A DNA stretch of 64,000 bases. Source: Shigella phage CWP003. The stretch's first letter is position 1; each line of letters opens with the position of its first letter. Of this stretch, positions 3,087 through 64,000 are shown piece by piece. Below the pieces are notes generated by a model that did no database searches, was not told the DNA's origin, and was given only the letters and a program-made list of their open reading frames with translations. Location: the sequence record OL856099. One strand, written 5' to 3'. Both the position numbers and the translations under genes were made by a program.

Positions 3087-3224
3087 ATGCAAAAGATTAT
3101 TCAGTCACGTTACGTTAAAGTGCGAAATATTAATTGCAACTCTTTGCTTTCTTGGAAATGGGCTGTTTACGACTCGATGCTGATTGGCGTTTTAGTTGCT
3201 GGAGTGCTTTTTAATATTCACTGA
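3087..3224 (+). CDS. small membrane protein (45 aa)
   Basis: ATG preceded by AGAGGAAG; hydrophobic C-terminal segment MLIGVLVAGVLF; below the ORF-table size cutoff. Confidence 0.25.
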   Translation: MQKIIQSRYVKVRNINCNSLLSWKWAVYDSMLIGVLVAGVLFNIH

Positions 3225-3646: not shown

Positions 3647-5059
3647 ATGCAAACGGCACGCGAAATTGACAAAAATGGATTCTTGACGATTGTGGGTTGT
3701 CCCATTTCGTCATTTGGCATTTTTGATTATTCTGCAGGTCAGGTTGGACTTGATGGTGATCCGAATCGCATCGTAAAAGTTTATCGCCCAGAGTCAGCGG
3801 TGAAAGACCCCGAAGCGATAGATTCATTCAAAAATATCCCTTTCATCGACAATCACGAAATGCTTTCTGGATTCGAAGGTGATGAGGATAACACAGCACC
3901 CGAAGAGTATGGCGTTGATGGCGTTCTAACTGGCAATGTTTATTATGACAAGCCATGGATGCGCGGCGACCTTAAAGTTTTTAGCCGTCGTCTGAAGAAA
4001 GCCATCGATTCTGGAAAGGTTGACTTGTCTTTGGGCTATGACTGTGAATTCATCATACAGTCTGGAGAGTTTGACGGGCAGCCGTATGAAGTGGTACAGA
4101 CAACTCTTCGCGGCAACCACATTGCTCTCGTGGACGTTGGTCGAGTACCAGGTGCACGGGTGCTGGATGGTCGTTGCTTTGACCATCTTTGTTTGACGAC
4201 TGTAACACCATCCAACGAGGATTTAGACATGCCAAAACCGTTAAAAGGTAAAGCGCGTGATAATGCTGTTGAACAGCTGAAATCACTGATCCCTGCGCTC
4301 GAACAATTTCTGAATGAAGAGAGCACCGAAGCTGCTCATCAGGACGAAGTTGAAGTGAAAGCAGAAGAGAAGGATTCAACCGAAGAACGTGAAGAAGTGA
4401 TGGTTGATCCAGAAGTTAAAGCAGAAGCTGAAGAGACTCCAGAAGGTGAAGAGAAGTTTGAAGTTGAATCTGAATCTCACGCTGGCGGCGAGCTTCCGCA
4501 ACTGATCAGCCAAATCGAAGCACTTATTGCAAAACTGAAAGGTGGCGCGGTAGGTGATGAAGAAGAAGTTGAAGCCGAAGTCAAAGACGAAGAAGTTGAA
4601 GTCAAGGCTGAAGATGTATCACCTTGCGACAAAGCTGAAGATGTGGTTAGCGGCCTGCAAAACAGCAACGTAAAGGGGGCTTCGGTCGAAAAAGATGACA
4701 AACCGACAAAAGCGGCGAAAGCGTCGCCAGGTCCAGCAAAAGGGGAACACTCAATGGCATCTGATTCAGCAGTTGCTGCTTTCTACGCTGATTCTGCTCG
4801 TAAGAATAGCCTCTACCAGCGCCTGTCTAAAGTTGTTGGTGCCTTTGATCATGCAACTATGGACTCCAAGTCCGTAGCGAAATATGGCGCTAAAAAGTTA
4901 GGCTTGAAGTGCGTTGATGGTGCTGAGTTTGACGTGGTGGATAATTATCTGCGCGGCGTTGAACACGGTCAAAAACAGCGTGTAGTCGCAAAACAAAAGG
5001 CCGCTGCGGATTCTGCAGCAACTGACGAAGCATTTGAAGCTTGGTTGAAAGGGGAATAA
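3647..5059 (+). CDS. scaffolding / prohead protease-like protein with acidic E/V/K-rich repeat region
   Basis: GAGGGTGG RBS 6 nt before ATG 3647 (alternative ATG 3641); long acidic low-complexity stretch typical of scaffolds; position before capsid gene. Confidence 0.5.
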   Translation: MQTAREIDKNGFLTIVGCPISSFGIFDYSAGQVGLDGDPNRIVKVYRPESAVKDPEAIDSFKNIPFIDNHEMLSGFEGDEDNTAPEEYGVDGVLTGNVYYDKPWMRGDLKVFSRRLKKAIDSGKVDLSLGYDCEFIIQSGEFDGQPYEVVQTTLRGNHIALVDVGRVPGARVLDGRCFDHLCLTTVTPSNEDLDMPKPLKGKARDNAVEQLKSLIPALEQFLNEESTEAAHQDEVEVKAEEKDSTEEREEVMVDPEVKAEAEETPEGEEKFEVESESHAGGELPQLISQIEALIAKLKGGAVGDEEEVEAEVKDEEVEVKAEDVSPCDKAEDVVSGLQNSNVKGASVEKDDKPTKAAKASPGPAKGEHSMASDSAVAAFYADSARKNSLYQRLSKVVGAFDHATMDSKSVAKYGAKKLGLKCVDGAEFDVVDNYLRGVEHGQKQRVVAKQKAAADSAATDEAFEAWLKGE

Positions 5060-14364: not shown

Positions 14365-16545
14365 GTGTCTGACTCATTAGAAAAATTTGTTCTTCAATAT
14401 ACGGTGGACTTGAAAGAGTCCATCAATCGTCTTGAGCAATTGCAAGATAAGGTTGATCAGACAAATAAAAAGGCAAAGTCCGCTGGCAAAGACTTCACCG
14501 GAGCATTCAAAGATGTGTTCGGTGAGCTGAAGCCTCTCACAGCTGAACTGGGGTCTATTGACGGAATCCTTGCGCGGCTTACTTATCGCTTTGCCGCGCT
14601 CGTCCCTGTTGTCGCAGGATTGGCTGTCGTAGTCAAATCTATCGTTGATGTTCGAAAAGAATACGAAGCGCAAAGGAAGCTTGGATTTGAAGCAGGTCTT
14701 TCACCAATTGGCGTAGAGCAATTACAGCGGCAATTGAATGAAAGTTCAGGCGGAGTTCTTGGTGCGCAAGGGTCAAGGGATTTAATCAGCAAGGCTTCTA
14801 ATCTCGCATTCAATGCATACACCAACCCCGATGTGATGAACAAGGATAACTTGCTGCTGAACAAGATGGGGACCAGTCCTTTCAACAGTAACGGCGGCAT
14901 CAAAGACACAAACCAGCTGCTTGATGAAATTGGCACAAAGCTGAGAAGTGTGAATGAGCAAACCGCTCGTGCTATTGGTGCTCTGGCAGGTTTTACCGCC
15001 GATGAAGTCCGTGCGCTTCGTGAGCGAAATCAATCAGTCAAAGAAAGCACCCGTATAAGCGACGAAGAAACGGCGAAGCTGCAAAGACAGCAGGCTGCGC
15101 TTGAAACGATACGAAACAGCATGGGCCAAATTCAAGAAGACTGGCGACGCATTGAACTGGTAATCGGCGAGAACGTGATGCCAGCATTCTCGACGCTTGT
15201 CAGCAAGACTGCCGATACAGTCGAAGGATTCCAGATGATGTTCCAAAGAATGTCTGATGGATGGTCTGAATTTGTCGACAATTTCATCGCTGACTTGAAG
15301 CACCCGTTTGATAAACAGGCGGCTGTCAACGAGCGCCACGAGCGTGCCGTTGACAGATGGATCACACAGATGGCAGACGGCGATGTGAAACGTCAGAGGA
15401 ACCAGGAGCAAAACGCGGCTGAACAACGCTCTGCGCAAGCACTTTTCACTCGCGACATCAACCTGTTTTCAAGCGCCGTTTCAACCTTTGCTGGTGTTAT
15501 TGATGAGCGACAAGCGTGGGCTGCATGGGCTGGTGAGATAGGACGAAGCGCAGGCCAATCCGCAATGCCTGGAACGCCAGCACTAAGCACTGGTGCGACC
15601 GTAGGTAACAACTTGGGGTCAGGCAATCCGACTGCATATGACTCAATCTATGAGGAAGCATCCAAGCGTTATGGAATCCCTGTTGCGATGATGAAGGCCG
15701 TAACAGAAGTCGAATCTGGATTCAACCCAAATGCCGTAAGCGGAGCAGGCGCGACCGGACTGATGCAAATAATGCCTTCCAACTTCAAGGGTCTTGGCAT
15801 CACAGACGGTAACGACCCAAGACAAAACATTATGGGCGGCGCTCAACTTCTCAAGGAATATTTAACTGCTGCCAATGGCGATTGGAATCTTGCTCTGACG
15901 ATGTATCACGGCGGATACGACCGCAGCGGATGGGGAAAGAACACCCGTGCATATCCTGGCAAGGTCATGGCTGCTCTCGAACGACAGGCGAATGGAGAAT
16001 ACGCCACGGGAGCGCCGCAAGGTGCACCAGTTACTCCAGTGCTTAGCGGTAGCGGAGCAGAAGCGCCGAAAGGAAGCTATGCACCAGTACAAGGCCAATC
16101 CCGCCAAACGGTGCAATACAGACAGTTGCAAGAAGCCATTGCAGGATACCTAAACGTGCCAGTTGAGCAGCTGATGCAAGGGCAAGTTAACAAAGGTGAT
16201 ATTGACTTTGCTCAAACTTACCTTAAACTTGGAACGCAAAGGGATTATATTAAAAACATGCAGCTGGCTTCAACTCCAGGTGTAAGACCGAACATTCAGG
16301 CCGAAGCGATGAAGAATGCTCGTCTTGCGGCATTCCAGCTTGAGGCGTTCCAGAAATACGGCGGCGACCTCTCCGCGAATAGTCGACCTGGTGGGCGTGA
16401 TATTACTATGGGTCAGAAAAACGTTGTCATCAACGTCAACGGCGCTCAAGACCCACGAAGCACGGCTATTGAGACTAAGCGCGTGCTTGAACAAGATGAT
16501 ATCAACGACATAAACAACCTTACTGCTACACCTTTGAAGTGGTGA
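14365..16545 (+). CDS. tail tape measure protein with lytic transglycosylase (SLT-like) domain
   Basis: GTG start; helical N-terminal region; segment YGIPVAMMKAVTEVESGFNPNAVSGAGATGLMQIMPSNF typical of lytic transglycosylases. Confidence 0.6.
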   Translation: MSDSLEKFVLQYTVDLKESINRLEQLQDKVDQTNKKAKSAGKDFTGAFKDVFGELKPLTAELGSIDGILARLTYRFAALVPVVAGLAVVVKSIVDVRKEYEAQRKLGFEAGLSPIGVEQLQRQLNESSGGVLGAQGSRDLISKASNLAFNAYTNPDVMNKDNLLLNKMGTSPFNSNGGIKDTNQLLDEIGTKLRSVNEQTARAIGALAGFTADEVRALRERNQSVKESTRISDEETAKLQRQQAALETIRNSMGQIQEDWRRIELVIGENVMPAFSTLVSKTADTVEGFQMMFQRMSDGWSEFVDNFIADLKHPFDKQAAVNERHERAVDRWITQMADGDVKRQRNQEQNAAEQRSAQALFTRDINLFSSAVSTFAGVIDERQAWAAWAGEIGRSAGQSAMPGTPALSTGATVGNNLGSGNPTAYDSIYEEASKRYGIPVAMMKAVTEVESGFNPNAVSGAGATGLMQIMPSNFKGLGITDGNDPRQNIMGGAQLLKEYLTAANGDWNLALTMYHGGYDRSGWGKNTRAYPGKVMAALERQANGEYATGAPQGAPVTPVLSGSGAEAPKGSYAPVQGQSRQTVQYRQLQEAIAGYLNVPVEQLMQGQVNKGDIDFAQTYLKLGTQRDYIKNMQLASTPGVRPNIQAEAMKNARLAAFQLEAFQKYGGDLSANSRPGGRDITMGQKNVVINVNGAQDPRSTAIETKRVLEQDDINDINNLTATPLKW

Positions 16546-16549
16546 TCAT

Positions 16550-17422
16550 TTGAAAAAGAGAATCCTTAAAGTCACCTTATCCATGCCGGATGGCACAAGC
16601 CAAGTTCTTGATGAAGGATTGATGCTCAGATGCCGAATCAAAAAGGCAGCACTTTCCGTTCAGAATAAGGCCACGATTGAAGTCGCAGGATTGACAGGGT
16701 ACTTGAGAGAGTACCTGCTTTCCAACTTCACGGCATTCAACAAACGTCTGCGTGATCAAGGTCAGTTGGCGGCGAACTATGTTAACGTGACTATTGAAGC
16801 TGGATACAGAGAGGGGAGCGTAATCAGCAGCAACTTGGTATACAAGGGACAGGTGACGACGGTGGAGATAACAGCGCCGCCGCCGAATATCGTCATCAGA
16901 ATCACGTGTTACACAAACCAAATAAACAGAACGAAGTTCATAACTCAAGCCGCGCCATCCAACCCGACTTTCAAAGAGTTTGTGGAATGGTCTGCAAAAC
17001 AAATGGACATCGATACTGTTATTTGTGATACGTCGATTAACAATCAGCGACTTGTGAATCCAGGAAGGACGACATATGTTGCTGCTGCGCTGCTGCTTGA
17101 GATCCAGAACTATCAACGCAACTCCATCGCGGCATACATTGATGACGATACGTTAATTGTTAAGGATAAAGACAAAATTCTAAATCCAGACCAGATTACA
17201 GTCATTGAGGAATTTGTCGGAATACCGATGTGGAACGAGTGGGGTGCAGACTTCACTTGTATGTATAACGCAGATTTGAAGCTTGCACAAGGTGTTAAAT
17301 TCAAATCAGTCTTAAACCCAAGCTTGAACGACACCACATTTGTCATCATGCAACTTGAATATGATTTAGCAAGTCGTGATGATATATTTACGGTGACGGG
17401 CGGCGTTGCACCATCGGCATAA
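16550..17422 (+). CDS. tail / baseplate hub-region protein
   Basis: apparent TTG start after GGTGA; follows tape measure. Confidence 0.4.
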   Translation: MKKRILKVTLSMPDGTSQVLDEGLMLRCRIKKAALSVQNKATIEVAGLTGYLREYLLSNFTAFNKRLRDQGQLAANYVNVTIEAGYREGSVISSNLVYKGQVTTVEITAPPPNIVIRITCYTNQINRTKFITQAAPSNPTFKEFVEWSAKQMDIDTVICDTSINNQRLVNPGRTTYVAAALLLEIQNYQRNSIAAYIDDDTLIVKDKDKILNPDQITVIEEFVGIPMWNEWGADFTCMYNADLKLAQGVKFKSVLNPSLNDTTFVIMQLEYDLASRDDIFTVTGGVAPSA

Positions 17423-17424
17423 AT

Positions 17425-17946
17425 ATGAGAAAGAATAAAGTAATTGACTTGTTTGGCGTTACTTATGAAATTCATCAATTCAGCGCAATAGATGCATTCG
17501 AAATGGTGGACGACATAAGCATATTAACTCCACTTGAATTATTGAGTGAATGTTATGTCATCAAATATGACGGGTCCAAAGTAAGGCTTAATTCTGAAAA
17601 AGTAATTAGTGAGGAAGTGAAAAGCATACCTAATCACTTGCCGCCTAATCTTGTGTTGAAAGTATTAATGGAAGCCGTTAAAAAGCACAACTTTGGATTC
17701 CTTAGCGATTGGAAAGGCACCAAGATTCCAAATAGATTCTTGGCGGATGCACCGACAGTAGAGCCTAATTATCTTGAGCCAATGGTTGCAAGTCTAATAA
17801 ATAACGGCCTTGCCTCTTTAAAGGAGTTGGAAGAATACTATTCATTGCGTGATGCATTTGCCATGTTTGATGGTTTAATAGCAAAATCACTTAATGAAGC
17901 CTACTCAAACGAAGCTGCCATTAAAGAATCAAAGTCAAATCGCTAA
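17425..17946 (+). CDS. hypothetical baseplate protein
   Basis: ATG 3 nt after upstream stop. Confidence 0.4.
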   Translation: MRKNKVIDLFGVTYEIHQFSAIDAFEMVDDISILTPLELLSECYVIKYDGSKVRLNSEKVISEEVKSIPNHLPPNLVLKVLMEAVKKHNFGFLSDWKGTKIPNRFLADAPTVEPNYLEPMVASLINNGLASLKELEEYYSLRDAFAMFDGLIAKSLNEAYSNEAAIKESKSNR

Positions 17947-17956
17947 AATATTGCTT

Positions 17957-18005
17957 ATAGACTCCTTATAGATTATAATTTGTTGATCAGATATAAGGAG
18001 TCTAT
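17957..18005 (+). promoter_or_regulatory. 14-bp inverted repeat enclosing the RBS and start codon of the 18004 gene
   Basis: ATAGACTCCTTATA 17957-17970 pairs with TATAAGGAGTCTAT 17992-18005; loop contains TATAAT. Confidence 0.35.
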
Positions 18006-24548: not shown

Positions 24549-25193
24549 ATGATTAATGCAAACGTAATATCTAAAGGGACCGGATGCAGCATGGATGTTG
24601 CAGAGAAATGGGTGGACCATTTCAAGCAGGCTTGTGAGCACTACGGAATCAAAAGCAAGAATGCCATCGCGGCATTCCTTGCAAACGTAGGAGTAGAGAC
24701 GGGCAGCTTGAAGACCTTTGTGGAAAATCTCAACTACTCTGCTCAAGGTCTTGCCAATACATGGCCTAGTCGTTACAGCGTCAACGGTCGCTCTGGAAGT
24801 GCCCCGAACTCATTGGCCCTGTCGATTGCCCGTAAACCTGTGGAAATCGCCAATAATACATATGCAAACCGCATGGGCAACGGTTCAGTAGCATCTGGCG
24901 ACGGTTGGAAGTACCGTGGCCGTGGTGCCATTCAGCTGACTGGAAAGGCCAACTATGCGGAATATACGCGTCAATCAGGCTATGATGCATTGAACAATCC
25001 TGATATTCTGACTGAACCAAAATACATTGCTGACAGCGCGGCATGGTTCTTTAAGAATAGCGGCTGTATTCCTCTTGCGGATGCAGGAAATTTTGATTCA
25101 ACCGTTAAGCGGATTAACGGGGCCGCGCCGAACGCAGCAAACCACGGCGAGTTGCGAAGAAAGCGTTACAAGGATGCATTAGCAGTTATGTAA
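24549..25193 (+). CDS. endolysin, glycoside hydrolase family 19-like
   Basis: AAGGTGA RBS; motifs NVGVETGSL and YRGRGAIQLTGKANY characteristic of GH19 muramidases; no signal peptide. Confidence 0.7.
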   Translation: MINANVISKGTGCSMDVAEKWVDHFKQACEHYGIKSKNAIAAFLANVGVETGSLKTFVENLNYSAQGLANTWPSRYSVNGRSGSAPNSLALSIARKPVEIANNTYANRMGNGSVASGDGWKYRGRGAIQLTGKANYAEYTRQSGYDALNNPDILTEPKYIADSAAWFFKNSGCIPLADAGNFDSTVKRINGAAPNAANHGELRRKRYKDALAVM

Positions 25194-25196
25194 GAA

Positions 25197-25218
25197 AAAG
25201 GCCCATATGGGCCTTTGT
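25197..25218. terminator. bidirectional rho-independent terminator between convergent genes
   Basis: AAAAAGGCCCATATGGGCCTTTGTTT hairpin with flanking A/T runs. Confidence 0.5.
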
Positions 25219-25449
25219 TTATTTTACGGCTTCAACTTGGACGGGCGGAGCGGAACTTGTATCAATGTCTGGCAAGTCGAAGTAATACCCCGCCATACCA
25301 ATTGCACCCACAATCGCGGCCCGTGCCACCTTGTTGCTAATTGACTCCCCAATAAGCTTTACCAACAGGGATAAGATTTGAGACGTCAAAGCCTTTTTCA
25401 GCCTTTTGTTTTCTTCCAAATCTTTCTGCATAACTACCACCCATGTCAA
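25219..25449 (-). CDS. small membrane protein (holin or moron product candidate)
   Basis: one hydrophobic segment AAIVGAIGMAGYYF; start overlaps upstream stop. Confidence 0.4.
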   Translation of the reverse strand: MTWVVVMQKDLEENKRLKKALTSQILSLLVKLIGESISNKVARAAIVGAIGMAGYYFDLPDIDTSSAPPVQVEAVK

Positions 25450-25988
25450 CGCACTTCCTGTGTCTTAACATTACCTGAAGCATCTCTCAAGGGCAGTGGA
25501 TAGTAGGCCATTTGGTAGTCTGATACGCCTTCAATGTGATAAAACACGATTACGTCTTTGCTGTTGATGAGCATGTTAACGACATCTGATTTATCTTCTG
25601 GAGTGAGTATTAGTGCGCCGCCTGTCCTGCTGTCTACTGCAACAGGGTATGTCTTGTCGACAAGGCCGCTGTCCAATGTATTATACCTGACAACGATTTC
25701 AGGGGCATCAACTTTTGCCATTGACATTCCGAACACAAACGACACGACCTGCCGACCGCGATCATTCATTACGCACATCTTTTCTTTGTCAAATCTTTCT
25801 TTTATTACGTCGTATTTATTCCAGCAAAACTCAAATGACTGCCCATTGTTAAAATATCTTGTCAAAACTTTTGCACTTCCATTCGGCGGCGTAAACATAT
25901 TTTCAGCCGATGCAGTCTTGGTGAAGAATATAACTGTCAGCATAGCCATGATGATGATCAAAACAATCTTTAATTTGTTCGCTTTCAT
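25446..25988 (-). CDS. secreted / periplasmic protein with signal peptide
   Basis: AAAGGTGA RBS; N-terminus MKANKLKIVLIIIMAMLTVIFFTKTASA-EN is a typical Sec signal; own promoter (TTTACT-16-TATACT) upstream. Confidence 0.5.
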   Translation of the reverse strand: MKANKLKIVLIIIMAMLTVIFFTKTASAENMFTPPNGSAKVLTRYFNNGQSFEFCWNKYDVIKERFDKEKMCVMNDRGRQVVSFVFGMSMAKVDAPEIVVRYNTLDSGLVDKTYPVAVDSRTGGALILTPEDKSDVVNMLINSKDVIVFYHIEGVSDYQMAYYPLPLRDASGNVKTQEVR

Positions 25989-26163: not shown

Positions 26164-27138
26164 TTAAAAATACTCCATATCGGTAATATCACGGAAGCAC
26201 TTATACAAGGCAGAGCGCGGCACGTCAACTATGCCAAAGTTAAAGAATTTATATGTCAAATACTTGTTTCGATAATTCTCGCGATTCTCCCAAAGCATTT
26301 TTCTCTCTGCCATAGGCATTGAACCAGCGGAGACGCGGAAGGGAATCATTTCACCTTTCTCATCAACATATTTTGGATTGACAACCACAAATGATCCAAG
26401 GTATCCTTTTGCAACTAAGCCTTCAGCCTCTTTCGAACGCTTAGTGCGACCCAACTCATCAATGAATGCTTCGTTGTTATTCTCCATCATCTCAACGAAG
26501 TCTATGATCAGTCCTTCTTCATCGGTCCACGGCTTGTCCTTCCACACATCACGTGACTTTGGCGTCGCGCGGCCATGCTTGTATTTGCCCGTCCAAGACT
26601 TGCCATACAAGCCTTCATAGCCAAGCTGGTCTGCTTCGATTTGCATCGCCGCGTACTGTTCCATATTTTCGATGTTTCGATATTCGAGAGCGCGAAGGAA
26701 TGGGCGTCGACCATGGTTGATGAGGTGCTGATTGACTTCAGCAACTCTAGCGCGATAGTTTGCATAACGCTTTTCAAAAGGCAAATCAGGGTCGCTGAAG
26801 TCATCAAACACCCACCATGTAAAGTTAGTGATTGCATCAGTGTTCATGCATGCAGTATAGGCCTGTTGCATGACGTTCTTGTCATTCGGATTACCGTCAA
26901 TTAGCTCTCCATCAAGTCCGTGAATCAATTCACCCAAGAATAGGAACTCTTTTTTGATTTGAATGTTGCGCAGTGCCATGCCGGATGTGCCCATTGGCAA
27001 GTTGTCATACGCCATCGCGCGTATTCCATCGACCTTGAAGGATAATCCGCAAGGCAGCGGCACATCTTCGCCGCGCTCGATGATTTGTTTACGCTGGCAA
27101 CCTTTCATTGGTTTTAATGCTTTGATTTCTCCTGCCAT
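26164..27138 (-). CDS. ATP-dependent DNA ligase
   Basis: AAGGAG RBS before second ATG; nucleotidyltransferase motif I SFKVDGIRAM; DGELI and EGLVAK motifs. Confidence 0.6.
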   Translation of the reverse strand: MAGEIKALKPMKGCQRKQIIERGEDVPLPCGLSFKVDGIRAMAYDNLPMGTSGMALRNIQIKKEFLFLGELIHGLDGELIDGNPNDKNVMQQAYTACMNTDAITNFTWWVFDDFSDPDLPFEKRYANYRARVAEVNQHLINHGRRPFLRALEYRNIENMEQYAAMQIEADQLGYEGLYGKSWTGKYKHGRATPKSRDVWKDKPWTDEEGLIIDFVEMMENNNEAFIDELGRTKRSKEAEGLVAKGYLGSFVVVNPKYVDEKGEMIPFRVSAGSMPMAERKMLWENRENYRNKYLTYKFFNFGIVDVPRSALYKCFRDITDMEYF

Positions 27139-27731
27139 CACTCAAACTCCTTATTCATCACTTGTTCCAGCGCATAGGCATAAGCCTGATCAGTCGATTT
27201 AATAAACGTTCCGTTGTACATCACACCTTTACGGTCCTTGATGTCTTCATAGGCGGCTTGAGCGCAATCAGACAGTCGAAGTCCATAATCATGCGCTACG
27301 CCGGAAAGATAATCGACTGCGGCCATGATAGTGACATCAATATCCATGCTTTGATTTTTAGCAATGGCGTCACCAAGCCGTCCGAGAGTCTTCGCCAAGC
27401 GAAGGATAAAGGAATGAGGGTGAGCGCCTTTGTCAGCGCAACCGCCTCCGTTGATGTCTTCGATTTTTGCACCATTTTGCGCGGCAAGAATAGTTAACAC
27501 AACAAGGCAATCACCGATGTCGTCCTTGATTGCGGCTTGCAAATCACAAATGGCCTGCTCTGTATATCCGATTTCAGGGTCAAAGAACACAAGGTCATGG
27601 AGTTGATCCACGTGGTCGGTCAACTCCCCAAACTCGCTAATAAGCTTCGGGTATTGGTCTTTAAGGCCGCAACCTTTGATGATGTTACGGTCAGAAGCCC
27701 ATTGGCGAATGTTTGCATAAATCTGGTTCAT
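27138..27731 (-). CDS. MazG-like nucleoside triphosphate pyrophosphohydrolase
   Basis: KLISEFGEL and IGDCLVVL segments fit the MazG EExxE-type helical fold. Confidence 0.5.
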   Translation of the reverse strand: MNQIYANIRQWASDRNIIKGCGLKDQYPKLISEFGELTDHVDQLHDLVFFDPEIGYTEQAICDLQAAIKDDIGDCLVVLTILAAQNGAKIEDINGGGCADKGAHPHSFILRLAKTLGRLGDAIAKNQSMDIDVTIMAAVDYLSGVAHDYGLRLSDCAQAAYEDIKDRKGVMYNGTFIKSTDQAYAYALEQVMNKEFE

Positions 27732-28246
27732 TTATTTTCCTTTGATGCGTTGAATTGGTCGATTTTAATTTTAGCCTGATTATAAGTATCAATCAAGCTA
27801 TTAACTTTCTCTTTTAATCGGTTCGTTTCTGCGGCGAACTGAACAAGAAATCGGACATCCTCTTCTGATAGTCCACAGTTTCCTTCTGGGATAGAGAGGC
27901 GTCCAGTGGTCGCAGAGTAGGGCACACTCCTGAGTAATTCACGGGAACAGCTGAGTTGCTCGCGCAGCTTGATATTCCCAGACTTGTAACGAGCAATAGT
28001 GTCATCAGCAACCAGTTGCGCTTCCTGGCGACCCTTCTCATATGCCGATGCCGATTCAACCTGTAAAGATGCAATTTGCTCTTCGAGTGCATTTATCTTG
28101 TCCTTACGCTCATTAAGCGATGTCAGATATTGATTGTCCTTGGCCAGTGATGCGTTGGTTTGCTGAAGGTCTTCAACGTATGATCCAGCGGCGAACGCGC
28201 CAACAAGGGCCAGAATCTTCAGTAGCGGTACAATTCTTTCTATCAT
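27728..28246 (-). CDS. Rz: i-spanin (Rz-like)
   Basis: N-terminal transmembrane segment, coiled-coil periplasmic region, conserved Cys residues; lipoprotein ORF embedded in +1 frame. Confidence 0.55.
   Translation of the reverse strand: MIERIVPLLKILALVGAFAAGSYVEDLQQTNASLAKDNQYLTSLNERKDKINALEEQIASLQVESASAYEKGRQEAQLVADDTIARYKSGNIKLREQLSCSRELLRSVPYSATTGRLSIPEGNCGLSEEDVRFLVQFAAETNRLKEKVNSLIDTYNQAKIKIDQFNASKENK
27814..28041 (-). CDS. Rz1: o-spanin (Rz1-like lipoprotein) embedded within the Rz frame
   Basis: MRRVARKRNWLLMTLLLVTSLGISS-C lipoprotein signal with lipobox; wholly inside 27728-28246 in a different frame. Confidence 0.5.
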   Translation of the reverse strand: MRRVARKRNWLLMTLLLVTSLGISSCASNSAVPVNYSGVCPTLRPLDASLSQKETVDYQKRMSDFLFSSPQKRTD

Positions 28247-28264
28247 GATGCACCAGATAAATAA

Positions 28265-28286
28265 AAGGCCGCCAATCGGCAGCCTT
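28265..28286 (-). terminator. hairpin terminator after SSB-like gene
   Basis: AAGGCCGCC-AATC-GGCAGCCTT stem-loop with T-run on the minus strand. Confidence 0.35.
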
Positions 28287-28303: not shown

Positions 28304-29164
28304 TTAAAACTCTTCTGCGTCGGTCGGAGTTTCATTGACAGGACCAGCGGCACCACTTGCTTCTTCCTGCTTGCTGCGGTCAATGTTAACGTTGCCGCCA
28401 ACCACGTCGTTGTGGAATGCTTTGGCGACTTCGTACAGGCCTTTGTCCTGCACCAGACCTTCCAGCTCAAACTTCAGGACGGACCAGGTGTTGCCGTCTT
28501 TGGACTGAGACGCAGTACCCATGCGAACGATGTTCATGAAGGTCGGCGGCGTTTTCAGGCCCTGCGGAGTCTGAACTTTCTTCTGCTGCAGAGCGGTCAT
28601 CAGCATGCGAGACGGCTTGATCATGGAAGAAGTCAGAGACAGCATTGCACTACCAAATTCACCAGTTTCTTCGTTCAACAGAATCACGAAGTGGTTACGT
28701 GTATCTGCGTAGTAAGGTGATTTCTTCTCGTGCACCTTGCCGTTTTCGTCTGGCACAAACACCTTACCGTTGATCTCAACAGCGCGGCCTGCCGCGACTT
28801 CTGCATCAACGTGCTCTTTGGTGAATTCACCTTTAAAGCCTTTATCGTCGGACTCGCGACCGCCCCAAAGGATGAAGGTGCGTTTGAATGCGCAAGGGAT
28901 GATCTGCACGCCCTTCTTGCCGTCATACAATTCACCAGTAACGGTGTTGTACAGCATACCAGCTTTTGCGCCAGGAACGTGTTTTGGATCATCTTCGTCG
29001 ACCATCGGAGACATCTTTTGCAGTACGACGATAAAAGGAATGGCATAAGCGTCGGCATCGGCACCTTCAAAACCAGCGCCAAAATCGGTCATATCGACAA
29101 AATCAGCCATAGCGGACATCTGGGTGTTTTTTGCTGCAACTTCGGTAGTTTCTTTCTTAGACAT
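28304..29164 (-). CDS. single-stranded DNA-binding protein-like
   Basis: acidic C-terminal tail ending TDAEEF (acidic tail with terminal Phe as in E. coli SSB and T7 gp2.5); in replication operon. Confidence 0.45.
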   Translation of the reverse strand: MSKKETTEVAAKNTQMSAMADFVDMTDFGAGFEGADADAYAIPFIVVLQKMSPMVDEDDPKHVPGAKAGMLYNTVTGELYDGKKGVQIIPCAFKRTFILWGGRESDDKGFKGEFTKEHVDAEVAAGRAVEINGKVFVPDENGKVHEKKSPYYADTRNHFVILLNEETGEFGSAMLSLTSSMIKPSRMLMTALQQKKVQTPQGLKTPPTFMNIVRMGTASQSKDGNTWSVLKFELEGLVQDKGLYEVAKAFHNDVVGGNVNIDRSKQEEASGAAGPVNETPTDAEEF

Positions 29165-29223: not shown

Positions 29224-29781
29224 TTACTTTTTGCTTTTAGGCAAGGTTATTTTAGCTTCTTTATACTCAAAAACGCTAATATCTTCACTAACTGGATTAC
29301 CCGCTTCCAGCTGTTCTTTAACAAATGACTTCAGTGTAGCAGAATGAACGCCTTGTTTCAACGTGGCTTCAACACCGTCTTCACGCAGCGCGGCAACAAT
29401 CTCTTGCGCTTGCTCGATTTCTTCGCGACCGAACTCAGCCGTGACGCTGGACTTGATCAAGCCGCCGTAACCGTTGTTGACGAGCCAATCGAATACCTTC
29501 AATTCATTTTCTTTCTTGATTGAAGCATTTACTTTTGACTCGACCTTGATTTTGGTCTTGTCTTCAAGCTTGATTTCGGACACGCCAAGCTCATCCATGA
29601 CGCCAGGAAGCAGAACAGTTTTGATTTCACTGATGCGCTGCTTTTGCATATCAGCTTCATCTTCAAGCTCTGTCAAAGCTTCTTGGCGTTCTGCCAATTC
29701 CGATACTAAGCGCGCAAGGCGCTCTTGAATGCTCTCAGGAGCGACCTGCGGCAAATCATCTTCCCAATTAATATTGCTCAT
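29224..29781 (-). CDS. hypothetical protein (replication module)
   Basis: AGAAGGTAA RBS; coiled-coil-like N-terminus. Confidence 0.45.
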   Translation of the reverse strand: MSNINWEDDLPQVAPESIQERLARLVSELAERQEALTELEDEADMQKQRISEIKTVLLPGVMDELGVSEIKLEDKTKIKVESKVNASIKKENELKVFDWLVNNGYGGLIKSSVTAEFGREEIEQAQEIVAALREDGVEATLKQGVHSATLKSFVKEQLEAGNPVSEDISVFEYKEAKITLPKSKK

Positions 29782-45317: not shown

Positions 45318-46988
45318 ATGTCAATTGAACATGACAATCTTCCAGAGGATACAGGTGATGAATTTGGTGCAATCTTTGACGAAATTCAAGACGCTGGTGT
45401 TTCAGAAGAAATGCAAGCGGCAGAGCAGCAAGGCACCAGAGCTAAAATCAGCCTACAGCACAAGGCTGTTGAGAAAGATGCAGAGCGCATGGAATGCTAC
45501 GGTGAAGAAGACTTGGTTGAAAGAGCACGTTTGCTCGCCTCACTTCAGGTAATCAAGTTCCCTCATTATAAACCGACGAAAGATGATTTTGTTCTTCAGG
45601 CGGACCGGACGAGTGACATGAACCGTTATGCGGTTTTCGACGCGTTGTTTGATAAGGGAAGCGGCATCGTCCCATTCCCTCACAAAGATACTTTTCGTGG
45701 ACGCTTAGTCGACCATCGCGGCGAAACATTCACCGACCGGACGTTGGAAGTCACAGAGATAGTTGCCGCTGTCGATGCAGCAGGCCTGTCCAACCCAAAC
45801 TCACGTCAGGTCGCTCAATCCTATAAGGAATGGGCCATGCGTTATCAGCGCGACGACCTGATGGACTTCTTCTACAAGAAGCTTCCTGAATGGGACGGTA
45901 CTGCGCGCATTGAGAAATACCTTATCGAGCTATTCCGACCGTTCGATACAGAGTTAAACCGACAAATCGGTGTGTATTTTTGGCTATCGCTCTATAACCG
46001 CCTGACCAACCCTGGCTGTCAAGCGCCAATCTCCATCGCGCTCATCGGCGGCCAGAACGCAGGGAAGAGTTATTTTAGTAAGCTGCTTTGCGAAGCTATT
46101 ATGAACGACCGCCACGCAACACCGATTCCGTTGAACTTGGCCGCGCAGAACTTCAACCCGTTCTTGCGAGCTATTACGGGTCGCTCAATTATCGCGAACG
46201 TTGGCGAGATGACGGGCTTTAAAAAGGCCGACATCGAAAACATGAAGGCATTCCTGACTAAGACGGAAGATGACCTGGACTTCAAATTTGAAGACACGCA
46301 GGTCAAACCACGCCAGTGGATTGCTATCATGGACGGCAACGAATACGCAGGCATGCAGCGTGACGATACGGGCAACCGTCGTGTGTATCCTATCTTTGTT
46401 GGCCAACTCGCCGACAAGGACGGGCAACCGAACTGGTCAAAAGACTTCCAAGCTGACCTTTCCACTTTGAAAGAAGACGTTTGGCAACTGATGGCTGAGT
46501 GTGCTGCGTGGATGGAGAAGCACGGCGAAGCAGGTTACAACGCGTTTGTCGGTGAAACGTCTCGCATGCTTACTGAGTTCAGTAAGAACGAAATGGAACG
46601 CGCTCGCGGCGTTATCCGTGATGAGATGGTCGACAACGACCTTGTTGAAGTCGTCATTACCGCGCCTTATGACCGACATCACAGCGGACGCTGGCACATC
46701 ACCAGTGGTGCAATCGCTATGGGATTCAGAGCTAAGTGCGGCAAGTCGCCTTTCTCACGTACCCTTGCGCCGCACATGTCGAAGCTTGGATTTGAGCCTG
46801 CAACCTATCGCAACCAGCGCGGCTACTTTACGCCGCTGATTAAGAATGAAGCAGGGGAATACATTTCTGACTTGATGACTATCTTAGCGTATCTTATTCG
46901 CGACGAGTCTGACCCTGAAGATATTGAATTCTTGAAGAAGGTTATTGAACGCAAACGTTCTTTAGGAAGAGATAAGGATGAATTCTGA
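45318..46988 (+). CDS. P-loop NTPase, primase-associated helicase-like
   Basis: CAGGAGGA RBS; Walker A IALIGGQNAGKSY; 556 aa; follows primase-like gene. Confidence 0.5.
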   Translation: MSIEHDNLPEDTGDEFGAIFDEIQDAGVSEEMQAAEQQGTRAKISLQHKAVEKDAERMECYGEEDLVERARLLASLQVIKFPHYKPTKDDFVLQADRTSDMNRYAVFDALFDKGSGIVPFPHKDTFRGRLVDHRGETFTDRTLEVTEIVAAVDAAGLSNPNSRQVAQSYKEWAMRYQRDDLMDFFYKKLPEWDGTARIEKYLIELFRPFDTELNRQIGVYFWLSLYNRLTNPGCQAPISIALIGGQNAGKSYFSKLLCEAIMNDRHATPIPLNLAAQNFNPFLRAITGRSIIANVGEMTGFKKADIENMKAFLTKTEDDLDFKFEDTQVKPRQWIAIMDGNEYAGMQRDDTGNRRVYPIFVGQLADKDGQPNWSKDFQADLSTLKEDVWQLMAECAAWMEKHGEAGYNAFVGETSRMLTEFSKNEMERARGVIRDEMVDNDLVEVVITAPYDRHHSGRWHITSGAIAMGFRAKCGKSPFSRTLAPHMSKLGFEPATYRNQRGYFTPLIKNEAGEYISDLMTILAYLIRDESDPEDIEFLKKVIERKRSLGRDKDEF

Positions 46989-60821: not shown

Positions 60822-60920
60822 TTATGCCGCTGCAGCGTAAACAATTGCATAAGCGATACCAAACAGCGCGGCAATACATACCGTGCCCCAAAATGCAAAG
60901 CGCCGTGATTCTTTATCCAT
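60822..60920 (-). CDS. small membrane peptide (32 aa)
   Basis: MDKESRRFAFWGTVCIAALFGIAYAIVYAAAA; GGTGGA RBS; not in ORF table. Confidence 0.3.
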   Translation of the reverse strand: MDKESRRFAFWGTVCIAALFGIAYAIVYAAAA

Positions 60921-61122
60921 TATCCACCGCCCCAATATCCTTCAAGAACTTGTGCAAGTCGCCTTTCTTATTAAGCTTTTGCATAGTTTTGATATCATCA
61001 AGTGATATGCCTTGATCGCTTTGTTGTTTGTCAATGCAGACAATGCCGCCTTTCTTAGCCTTGATTGTCATGCCTTTGGCTTCAATACTTTTTACGAAAT
61101 CGGACAATAATTTAATTTCCAT
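60913..61122 (-). CDS. hypothetical small protein
   Basis: ATG at 61122 overlaps upstream stop (TAATG). Confidence 0.4.
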   Translation of the reverse strand: MEIKLLSDFVKSIEAKGMTIKAKKGGIVCIDKQQSDQGISLDDIKTMQKLNKKGDLHKFLKDIGAVDNG

Positions 61123-63820: not shown

Positions 63821-64000
63821 TTTACGGTCCTCGTTTTGTCGACAACCGTATTATAGCCTTAATTTCTTTTGAGAGGAATATGACGGTTGCTGTCATTATT
63901 TGGTTTAATAATGAGCATAAAAACGATTAGAAAGATGATGGCTGATATACTTAATTCAATCAGCGCGGCCTGAGATATGGATTGATCTTCATGATACTGC

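Follow-up and report, generated by a model that had tools for sequence, protein, structure and literature searches.

A predicted embedded Rz/Rz1-type spanin gene pair, apart from the endolysin and among the replication genes of a Wifcevirus

Spanins break the outer membrane of the host at the end of infection. The 64-kb stretch of DNA analysed here (sequence record OL856099; hereafter the window) contains a candidate spanin locus in which an open reading frame (ORF) for an Rz1-like lipoprotein, the o-spanin, lies wholly inside the gene for an Rz-like i-spanin. The closest described pair is that of ECML-117, a Wifcevirus that is listed as a singleton family among the embedded i-spanins and again among the embedded o-spanins of SpaninDB (Kongari et al. 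2018, PMC6139136); the supplementary table of that survey places the embedded i-spanin at 45375-45894 and the embedded o-spanin at 45461-45689, the latter as a protein of 75 amino acids (aa) that starts from Met18 and extends from 0.395 to 0.834 of the i-spanin length (L), and SpaninDB lists one Pepcoil coiled coil for the i-spanin. The same survey describes the spanin genes of T4, PseT.3/PseT.2, which are located far from t and e, and the unimolecular spanin (u-spanin) of PB1, which has an AWAC lipobox (PMC6139136). A 4-kb query around our locus was 100% identical to vB_EcoM_WFH (MK373776 / NC_048194 / OZ035737; hereafter WFH), a member of the genus Wifcevirus, and 93-98% identical to the genomes of some 25 further members of this genus of PB1-like E. 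coli myoviruses. The window covers 64 kb of the ~68.3-kb WFH genome, with ~4.3 kb lying outside it.

Based on sequence comparison, we estimate at roughly 90% the probability that the pair works as a two-component spanin like lambda Rz/Rz1, with an embedded architecture. An earlier note, made from the DNA letters alone, had proposed an Rz/Rz1 pair at this place; the coordinates that it gave for both genes match the program-made ORF list exactly (Table 1), and its proposal agrees with the profile match of the i-spanin, with the embedded o-spanins of the homologues and with curated annotations. All the structural features of an embedded two-component spanin (Kongari et al. 2018) are present in the pair. 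The i-spanin, described in the same note as a membrane protein with a coiled coil and Cys, indeed displays a single N-terminal hydrophobic segment (MIERIVPLLKILALVGAFAAGSY; hydropathy KD19 maximum 1.75 at residues 1-19), corresponding to a transmembrane domain (TMD) at approximately residues 5-23 (nucleotides (nt) 28178-28234), followed by a charged periplasmic domain with two Cys residues, Cys100 and Cys124. An AF2 model built from the single sequence (pLDDT 66.5) has helices at residues 5-88, 94-107 and 128-170 and a disordered linker or coil at 108-127; the periplasmic domain is thereby modelled as mostly alpha-helical, with two helices and a linker. A sequence search of the PDB with Rz returned no relative.

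The o-spanin ORF encodes a signal with a basic n-region (RRVARKR), a hydrophobic h-region (NWLLMTLLLVTSLG) and the lipobox ISSC at 27964-27975. It reads LLLVTSLGISSC followed by ASNS, with the lipid-accepting Cys at position 43, Ala at +2 and a second Cys at position 57; the residues on the two sides of the predicted cleavage site are MRRVARKRNWLLMTLLLVTSLGISSC and ASNSAVPVNYSGVCPTLRPLD. The lipobox Cys, the +2 residue other than Asp and the short mature part would make it a substrate of signal peptidase II, yielding a mature lipoprotein of 50 aa that contains Cys57 and the motif CPTLRPLDASLSQKETVDYQ..MS.FLF. Relative to the i-spanin ORF, the o-spanin extends from 0.30 L (start at Met1) or 0.40 L (start at Met18) to 0.83 L, so that the claim of a wholly embedded +1-frame lipoprotein with a lipobox stands.

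The i-spanin matched phrog_1327, 'Rz-like spanin', with an E value of 1e-26, and the o-spanin matched phrog_4306 weakly (E 6e-4). Outside the genus, the closest homologues are ORF63 of Yersinia phage PY54 (tblastn with the i-spanin, E 1e-13), gp065 of Pantoea phage LIET2 and gp32/gp31 of Burkholderia phage Mica. Each of them contains a +1-frame embedded lipoprotein that is 42-50% identical to the WFH o-spanin, whereas the i-spanin (host) frames are only 27-30% identical between WFH and these three phages. The o-spanins share the motif CP..(P/R)P.D..L...ET.DYQ..MS.FLF, or, with its variants spelled out, C-P-x-x-x-P-x-D/A-x-x-L-x-x-x-E/P-T/A-x-D-Y/F...M-x-x-F-L-F, and the lipid Cys is invariant in WFH and the three distant homologues. 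Periplasmic Cys residues are conserved in both partners: Cys100 of Rz is invariant in four distant homologues, Cys124 is present in three of the four, and Cys57 of Rz1 is conserved as well.

Several lines of evidence bear on the embedded frame itself. When Rz was recoded synonymously, an alternative frame that was open over at least 92 codons appeared in 11% of the recodings, and is therefore not rare, but a lipoprotein-like ORF in the alternative frame arose in only 184 of 20000 (0.9%). A six-frame scan of the whole 64 kb for lipoprotein signals returned the o-spanin ORF and one evident false positive, the N-terminus of a Rossmann-fold protein, and nothing else. tblastn matched 28 Wifcevirus records, and each of them has the spanin pair. 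No interruption of the embedded ORF was seen in 12 Wifcevirus genomes, where its stop is unchanged and its Cys residues are invariant. Two divergent metagenomic relatives (L026 and L027), whose Rz genes have 55-77% nucleotide identity to that of WFH depending on the segment, retain the terminator, Rz and an intact embedded lipoprotein ORF; the lipobox Cys does not vary among these 14 genomes. Within the genus, variable sites are sparsest in the overlap (0.068 per nt, compared to 0.117 and 0.085 in the parts coding for Rz only and to 0.137 and 0.212 in the flanking genes; overlap versus flanking genes, p=4e-6). Since this within-genus variation did not set the overlap apart from the Rz-only parts, divergent relatives were needed for a test at wobble positions. 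In a comparison of three genomes (WFH, L026 and L027), 41 of 76 Rz wobble positions are invariant in the overlap versus 24 of 95 outside it (Fisher p=1.4e-4), the latter being divided into 10/68 in the 5' part and 14/27 in the 3' part. Both reading frames are under selection. Because of the recoding control, the six-frame scan, the intactness of the frame, the wobble constraint and the distant homologues, we conclude that the embedded gene is real and conserved.

The 3' end of Rz past the overlap (27732-27813, minus strand) is also rich in conserved wobble positions, 14 of its 27 being invariant. A sigma-70-like match, TTGATT-17-TAAAAT, is located at 27768-27796 (minus strand), upstream of MazG, as a possible internal promoter or translational-coupling element.

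A number of points weigh against a functional spanin of this type. The WFH Rz gave no match to the Pfam family PF03245 (Phage_lysis, Rz) even at E<=10; its link to this family is transitive, through three of the four aligned i-spanin relatives (PY54, LIET2 and Mica), which match it with a best E value of 6e-17. Within the genus, the variable-site density of the overlap, taken by itself, does not differ significantly from that of the Rz-only parts (p=0.15). Signal peptide and lipobox were assessed from pattern and hydropathy only, the timing of transcription and the read-through of the upstream terminator are inferred, and an experimental report on this or any other Wifcevirus spanin was not found in the literature. 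Finally, the choice of the o-spanin start is ambiguous, Met1 having the better Shine-Dalgarno sequence and Met18 being conserved.

Met1 (28092) is preceded by a good Shine-Dalgarno sequence (AAGGA, with an 8-nt spacer), and none is recognisable before Met18 (28041). In L026 and L027 the position of Met18 is kept and the extension upstream of it is not; the distant homologues in PY54, LIET2 and Mica have short signals, and a start at Met18 would give a signal peptide of normal length. The true start is thus likely Met18 at 28041, for a protein of 75 aa. The public records conflict on this point, with 75 aa in SpaninDB versus 92 aa in the phage Mansfield and in Bas98-101; the mature lipoprotein is identical from either start.

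By analogy with lambda, Rz would be anchored in the inner membrane by its TMD, N-terminus in and C-terminus out, and Rz1 would be exported, lipidated at Cys43 and, having Ala at +2, sorted to the outer membrane. The C-terminal parts of the two proteins may then bind each other across the periplasm, with homotypic disulfides formed via the conserved Cys residues, and the peptidoglycan mesh would hold the resulting complexes in place until it is degraded by the GH19 endolysin. Once freed, the complexes would fuse the inner and outer membranes as the final step of lysis.

The spanin genes head a unit bounded by terminators, Rz/Rz1-MazG-ligase, in which their translation is coupled to that of MazG. 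The i-spanin stop and the MazG start share the ATGA at 27728-27731, the MazG stop overlaps the ligase start, and 4-nt overlaps run along the whole of Rz-MazG-ligase; a second terminator follows the ligase (26091-26070, minus strand). Upstream, as had been noted before, the pair directly follows a terminator hairpin, which separates the i-spanin start from the Pam3_Gp34-like gene: the stem-loop occupies 28286-28265, and its T-run tail, reaching to ~28255, ends ~12 nt before the Rz ATG. The intergenic segments with this hairpin have fold energies of -16 to -21 kcal/mol, and the records of Mansfield and WFC mark it as a terminator. A scan limited to the sigma-70 consensus found no sigma-70-like promoter in the 12 nt between terminator and start codon, and the closest upstream minus-strand promoter candidates precede the DUF7307 and 87-aa genes (e.g. 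30102-30074). Because of this lack of a sigma-70-like promoter in the gap, the pair is most likely transcribed by attenuated read-through of the upstream terminator, together with the middle (replication) genes. Early or middle synthesis of the spanins would be harmless, since they would be inert until the cell wall is gone, and it fits, speculatively, the very short cycle of Wifcevirus, whose one-step growth is reported to be complete in ~10 min (PMC7048862).

It is less probable, though worth considering, that the spanin is functional but expressed late from a phage-specific promoter of its own, the terminator insulating it from middle transcription, so that its placement in a replication operon would be only apparent. 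The relative 14-1 possesses 11 promoters with a non-sigma-70 motif and short transcription units of ~1 kb (PMC10914365), a kind of promoter that a sigma-70 scan would miss, and the terminator ahead of the slot shows strong conservation. On the other hand, with ~12 nt from T-run to ATG such a promoter must overlap the hairpin or the upstream gene, the CTGGG motif is absent immediately upstream, and the 4-nt overlaps bind the spanin to the nucleotide-metabolism genes for MazG and ligase. Read-through together with the middle genes remains the preferred account of its expression.

Much harder to sustain is the view that the pair is a recently acquired, dispensable moron and that another factor disrupts the outer membrane in Wifcevirus. 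The closest relatives do reside in temperate-phage cassettes, and sister genera have another gene in the slot, but the pair is present and constrained in all 28 matching Wifcevirus records and in the two relatives of ~65% identity; the G+C content of the locus (0.451 versus 0.463) is not atypical and gives no signal of horizontal transfer; and the window holds no other lipoprotein candidate, no u-spanin ORF of the T1 gp11 / PB1 gp08 type according to the lipoprotein-signal scan, and no homologue of PB1 gp08. Least credible of all is that the embedded +1 ORF is a chance frame and that the 172-aa coiled-coil membrane protein alone is genuine, perhaps with a non-lysis role such as a replication- or membrane-associated scaffold, a view to which the frequency of long open frames among the recodings, the weak PHROG match of the embedded ORF and the location among replication genes lend some colour, and against which stand the rarity of lipoprotein-like frames, the sole genuine ORF of this kind in 64 kb, the wobble constraint, the intact frame in 14 genomes and an identity to three distant embedded lipoproteins exceeding that of the host frames.

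Table 1. Coordinates of the spanin genes and of the other features discussed (positions in the window unless another sequence is named).
Feature	Position	Strand	Remarks
i-spanin (Rz-like)	27728-28246	-	172 aa; ORF list
o-spanin (Rz1-like), maximal ORF	27814-28092	-	92 aa; +1 frame, wholly inside the i-spanin ORF
Intrinsic-terminator-like hairpin	28255-28286	-	G+C-rich; 9-bp stem, 6 GC, loop GATT, T-run
Pam3_Gp34-like gene, upstream of i-spanin	28304-29164	-	Pfam Pam3_Gp34 (PF23977), E 4e-86
MazG-like pyrophosphatase	27138-27731	-	phrog_1992, E 5e-63
ATP-dependent DNA ligase	26164-27141	-	phrog_114, E 5e-42
180-aa protein	25446-25988	-	N-terminal signal peptide or anchor (TKTASA followed by EN, AxA-like); beta-rich domain
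70-aa protein	25219-25431	-	phrog_5165; PB1 gp49 / Kyle gp058 family; candidate lysis helper
Bidirectional terminator	25197-25216		after the endolysin
GH19 endolysin	24549-25193	+	PF00182; phrog_181, E 2.5e-70
Single-TMD peptide	3087-3224		45 aa; no family support
Single-TMD peptide	60822-60935		32-37 aa; no family support
113-aa protein	63862-64000, cut by window end	-	signal-like N-terminus and C-terminal TMD
71-aa two-TMD protein (Bas101_0110)	OZ035737 67925-68137, outside window		charged C-terminus; class II holin shape
Slot hairpin, L003 (PB1)	~16344-16398
Slot hairpin, L029 (Kyle)	~956-1019
Slot hairpin, L026 and L027	~3670-3725
phrog_1544 gene gp52, L003 (PB1, NC_011810)	15738-16343	-
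phrog_1544 gene gp063, L029 (Kyle)	1020-1625
phrog_1544 gene, L020	5001-5591
phrog_1544 gene, L023	4001-4591
phrog_1544 gene, L024	4001-4591

The pair is situated within a minus-strand string of replication and nucleotide-metabolism genes. Of the neighbours named in the earlier note, the MazG-like gene on one side was recognised correctly, and the label 'SSB-like' (single-stranded DNA-binding protein, SSB) on the other is replaced by Pam3_Gp34 (PF23977), a PDB search with this protein returning no relative. The acidic C-terminal tail of the Pam3_Gp34-like protein ends in Phe (TDAEEF; TEAEEF in PB1), like SSB tails. The endolysin, which is soluble and without an N-terminal TMD or signal-arrest-release (SAR) sequence, is encoded on the plus strand and away from the pair, as had been described; it is convergent with the minus-strand genes, and the 2.5-3 kb in between contain the ligase, MazG and two small ORFs. 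A canonical lysis cassette, with the spanin adjoining and co-oriented with holin and endolysin, was not found in the window; the lysis genes are dispersed, and no holin is annotated nearby.

No holin is annotated in any Wifcevirus record, and PHROG scans of all small membrane ORFs in the window gave no match to a holin family. In line with the earlier observation that no convincing holin adjoins the endolysin, a canonical holin was not identified; what had been said on the holin candidates needs some adjustment. The first of them, at 25219-25449, corresponds to a 70-aa protein with an amphipathic or weakly hydrophobic helix and no strong TMD (KD19 maximum 1.23), but it is homologous to PA1-LRP of Pantoea phage PA1 (52% identity over 74% of the query, E 3e-4); the published primers for cloning PA1-LRP fit the PA1 ORF compared here. 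PA1-LRP alone inhibited growth and, together with endolysin, enhanced lysis (PMC11538084), and the PA1 endolysin tested with it is a homologue of the GH19 endolysin of the window. The phrog_5165 family is kept beside the endolysin in Pbunavirus, Kylevirus and Wifcevirus and is annotated 'hypothetical' everywhere. By homology, the 70-aa protein is a candidate lysis helper. The two other candidates, at 3087-3224 (45 aa) and 60822-60920, are single-TMD peptides without family support. The 71-aa two-TMD ORF located just outside the window looks most holin-like. Together with it, the 113-aa membrane protein at the genome end is conserved and unannotated, and these two are the ORFs most like holins in the genome. 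The 180-aa protein next to the ligase, whose signal looks cleavable, was also counted among the holin candidates. It is confined to Kylevirus and Wifcevirus-like phages (Kyle gp059, PA1), PB1 having no such gene; its AF2 model (beta-rich, pLDDT 65) had no significant match in the PDB, the best being IalB (E 0.012, TM score 0.36).

When the locus was compared with PB1 (Pbunavirus) and Kyle (Kylevirus), a common backbone was found: endolysin(+) / small ORF / (180-aa ORF in Kyle) / ligase / MazG / slot / Pam3_Gp34-like / DUF7307 / helicase, in which the slot corresponds to the place of the spanin pair. In each genus the slot has a terminator-like hairpin in front of it, the hairpin position being kept in L026, L027, Kyle and PB1 whatever the cargo, and in PB1 its stem sequence differs from that in the window. 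This positional conservation suggests that attenuation of the unit formed by slot, MazG and ligase, compared with the Pam3_Gp34-like gene, is conserved too. The slot protein of PB1 (gp52) and Kyle (gp063) is 201 aa long and belongs to phrog_1544 ('unknown function', 642 homologues); it has a glycine zipper at its N-terminus, a coiled coil in the middle and two TMDs in its C-terminal part, and gp52 has been called a 'probable holin' (PMC3008698). Homologues of PB1 gp52, gp08, gp10 and the rest of gp05-17 were sought in the window and none was found; since gp52 has no homologue there, the Wifcevirus clade has Rz/Rz1 where its relatives have a gp52-like gene. A GTA-holin (PF11351) identity of gp52 was considered and rejected: PB1 gave a lone sub-threshold match (E 0.018), one among 29 members, and the consistent weak matches are to glycine-zipper-type families.

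In unrelated 47-57-kb phage contigs and a Pseudomonas prophage, the gene immediately behind the endolysin, overlapping it by 4 nt, is gp52-like. This favours a function in lysis for the slot cargo in general; that of the gp52-like proteins may be as holins or in the step at which spanins work. The slot has the appearance of a site for lysis genes, ancestral to PB1-like phages, in which the cargo was swapped. A bolder version, which we regard as doubtful, is that the slot serves the last step of lysis in all PB1-like phages, that the Wifcevirus swap of gp52-like for Rz/Rz1 is a non-orthologous displacement, and that phrog_1544 is an unrecognised functional spanin analogue and not a holin; it is based on gp52-like genes at the usual place of spanins, with holin-like genes upstream and no lipoprotein ORF nearby, as in L020, where the gp52-like gene comes after those for a holin (phrog_2359) and for another protein, with 3 TMDs, and a lipoprotein ORF was not found nearby. 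As to the source of the Wifcevirus pair, the location of the PY54 and Mica homologues suggests that it may derive from a classical temperate-phage holin-endolysin-Rz/Rz1 cassette.

The AWAC u-spanin of PB1 was located as gp08 (NC_011810 3592-4026), with a 3-TMD protein, gp10, nearby. Some Pbunavirus records (E215, JJ01 ORF85; PMC9583000) apply the label 'u-spanin' to the DUF7307 / Pam3 gp33-like family (29224-29781 on the minus strand of the window; 17384-18004, gp54, in PB1). This label was rejected for the PB1 gp54 / JJ01 ORF85 family, which has neither lipobox nor TMD (KD19 maximum 0.39-0.83), and is probably a propagated mis-annotation. At the endolysin position of L026 (6803-7255, minus strand) there is a 150-aa ORF with no GH19 match on record, and L027 keeps a 214-aa GH19 protein; this may represent an endolysin replacement within the Wifcevirus-like clade.

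The spanin pair is already known: SpaninDB has listed it since 2018, and its GenBank annotation dates from 2019. The GenBank record of Mansfield (CPT_Mansfield_057/058, Center for Phage Technology) and those of BASEL Bas98-101 annotate the i- and o-spanin, and the RefSeq record of WFH labels the gene 'Rz-like spanin'; in most Wifcevirus records (the WFH GenBank entry, WFC, FEC19, EC150, AV128, RCIP and others) both genes are 'hypothetical' or the o-spanin is omitted. Dispersed lysis genes are not new either, being known from T4 and normal for this phage supergroup. The re-derivation of the pair from raw sequence thus adds nothing to the record, and its practical value is that of an annotation quality check. 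The comparative context, namely the PB1 gp52-like slot, the PA1-LRP homologue and the lack of a recognisable holin, may be of modest value to phage-lysis specialists for its concrete candidates, and the slot swap with gp52-like proteins is the only lead with some novelty.

Compared with the described systems, the pair is nearest to that of ECML-117, whose embedded i-spanin is 99.4% identical, with D110Y as the single difference, and whose embedded architecture and genomic position are alike; there is no biological difference between WFH and ECML-117, Mansfield or Bas98-101, the annotations differing on the o-spanin start alone. With lambda Rz/Rz1 it shares an i-spanin that has an N-terminal TMD and two helices with a linker, a +1 embedded lipoprotein with a Pro-containing mature part, and periplasmic Cys in both partners. 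It differs from lambda in that the mature Rz1 has 50 aa, versus 40 aa in lambda, in that the WFH Rz reaches PF03245 through PY54, LIET2 and Mica only and in that the pair lies outside any holin-endolysin-spanin cassette. In PY54 and Mica the homologous pair is part of a classical holin-endolysin-Rz/Rz1 cassette, whereas that of WFH lies apart from the endolysin, among replication genes. T4, likewise a virulent myovirus, also has its spanin genes distant from those for holin and endolysin, but in a 'separated' architecture and with unrelated sequences. PB1 shares the backbone, the slot and the hairpin with WFH, and its lysis genes are dispersed as well, gp08 being ~31 kb from the gp48 endolysin; its slot, in contrast, holds gp52, and its unimolecular spanin is located elsewhere.

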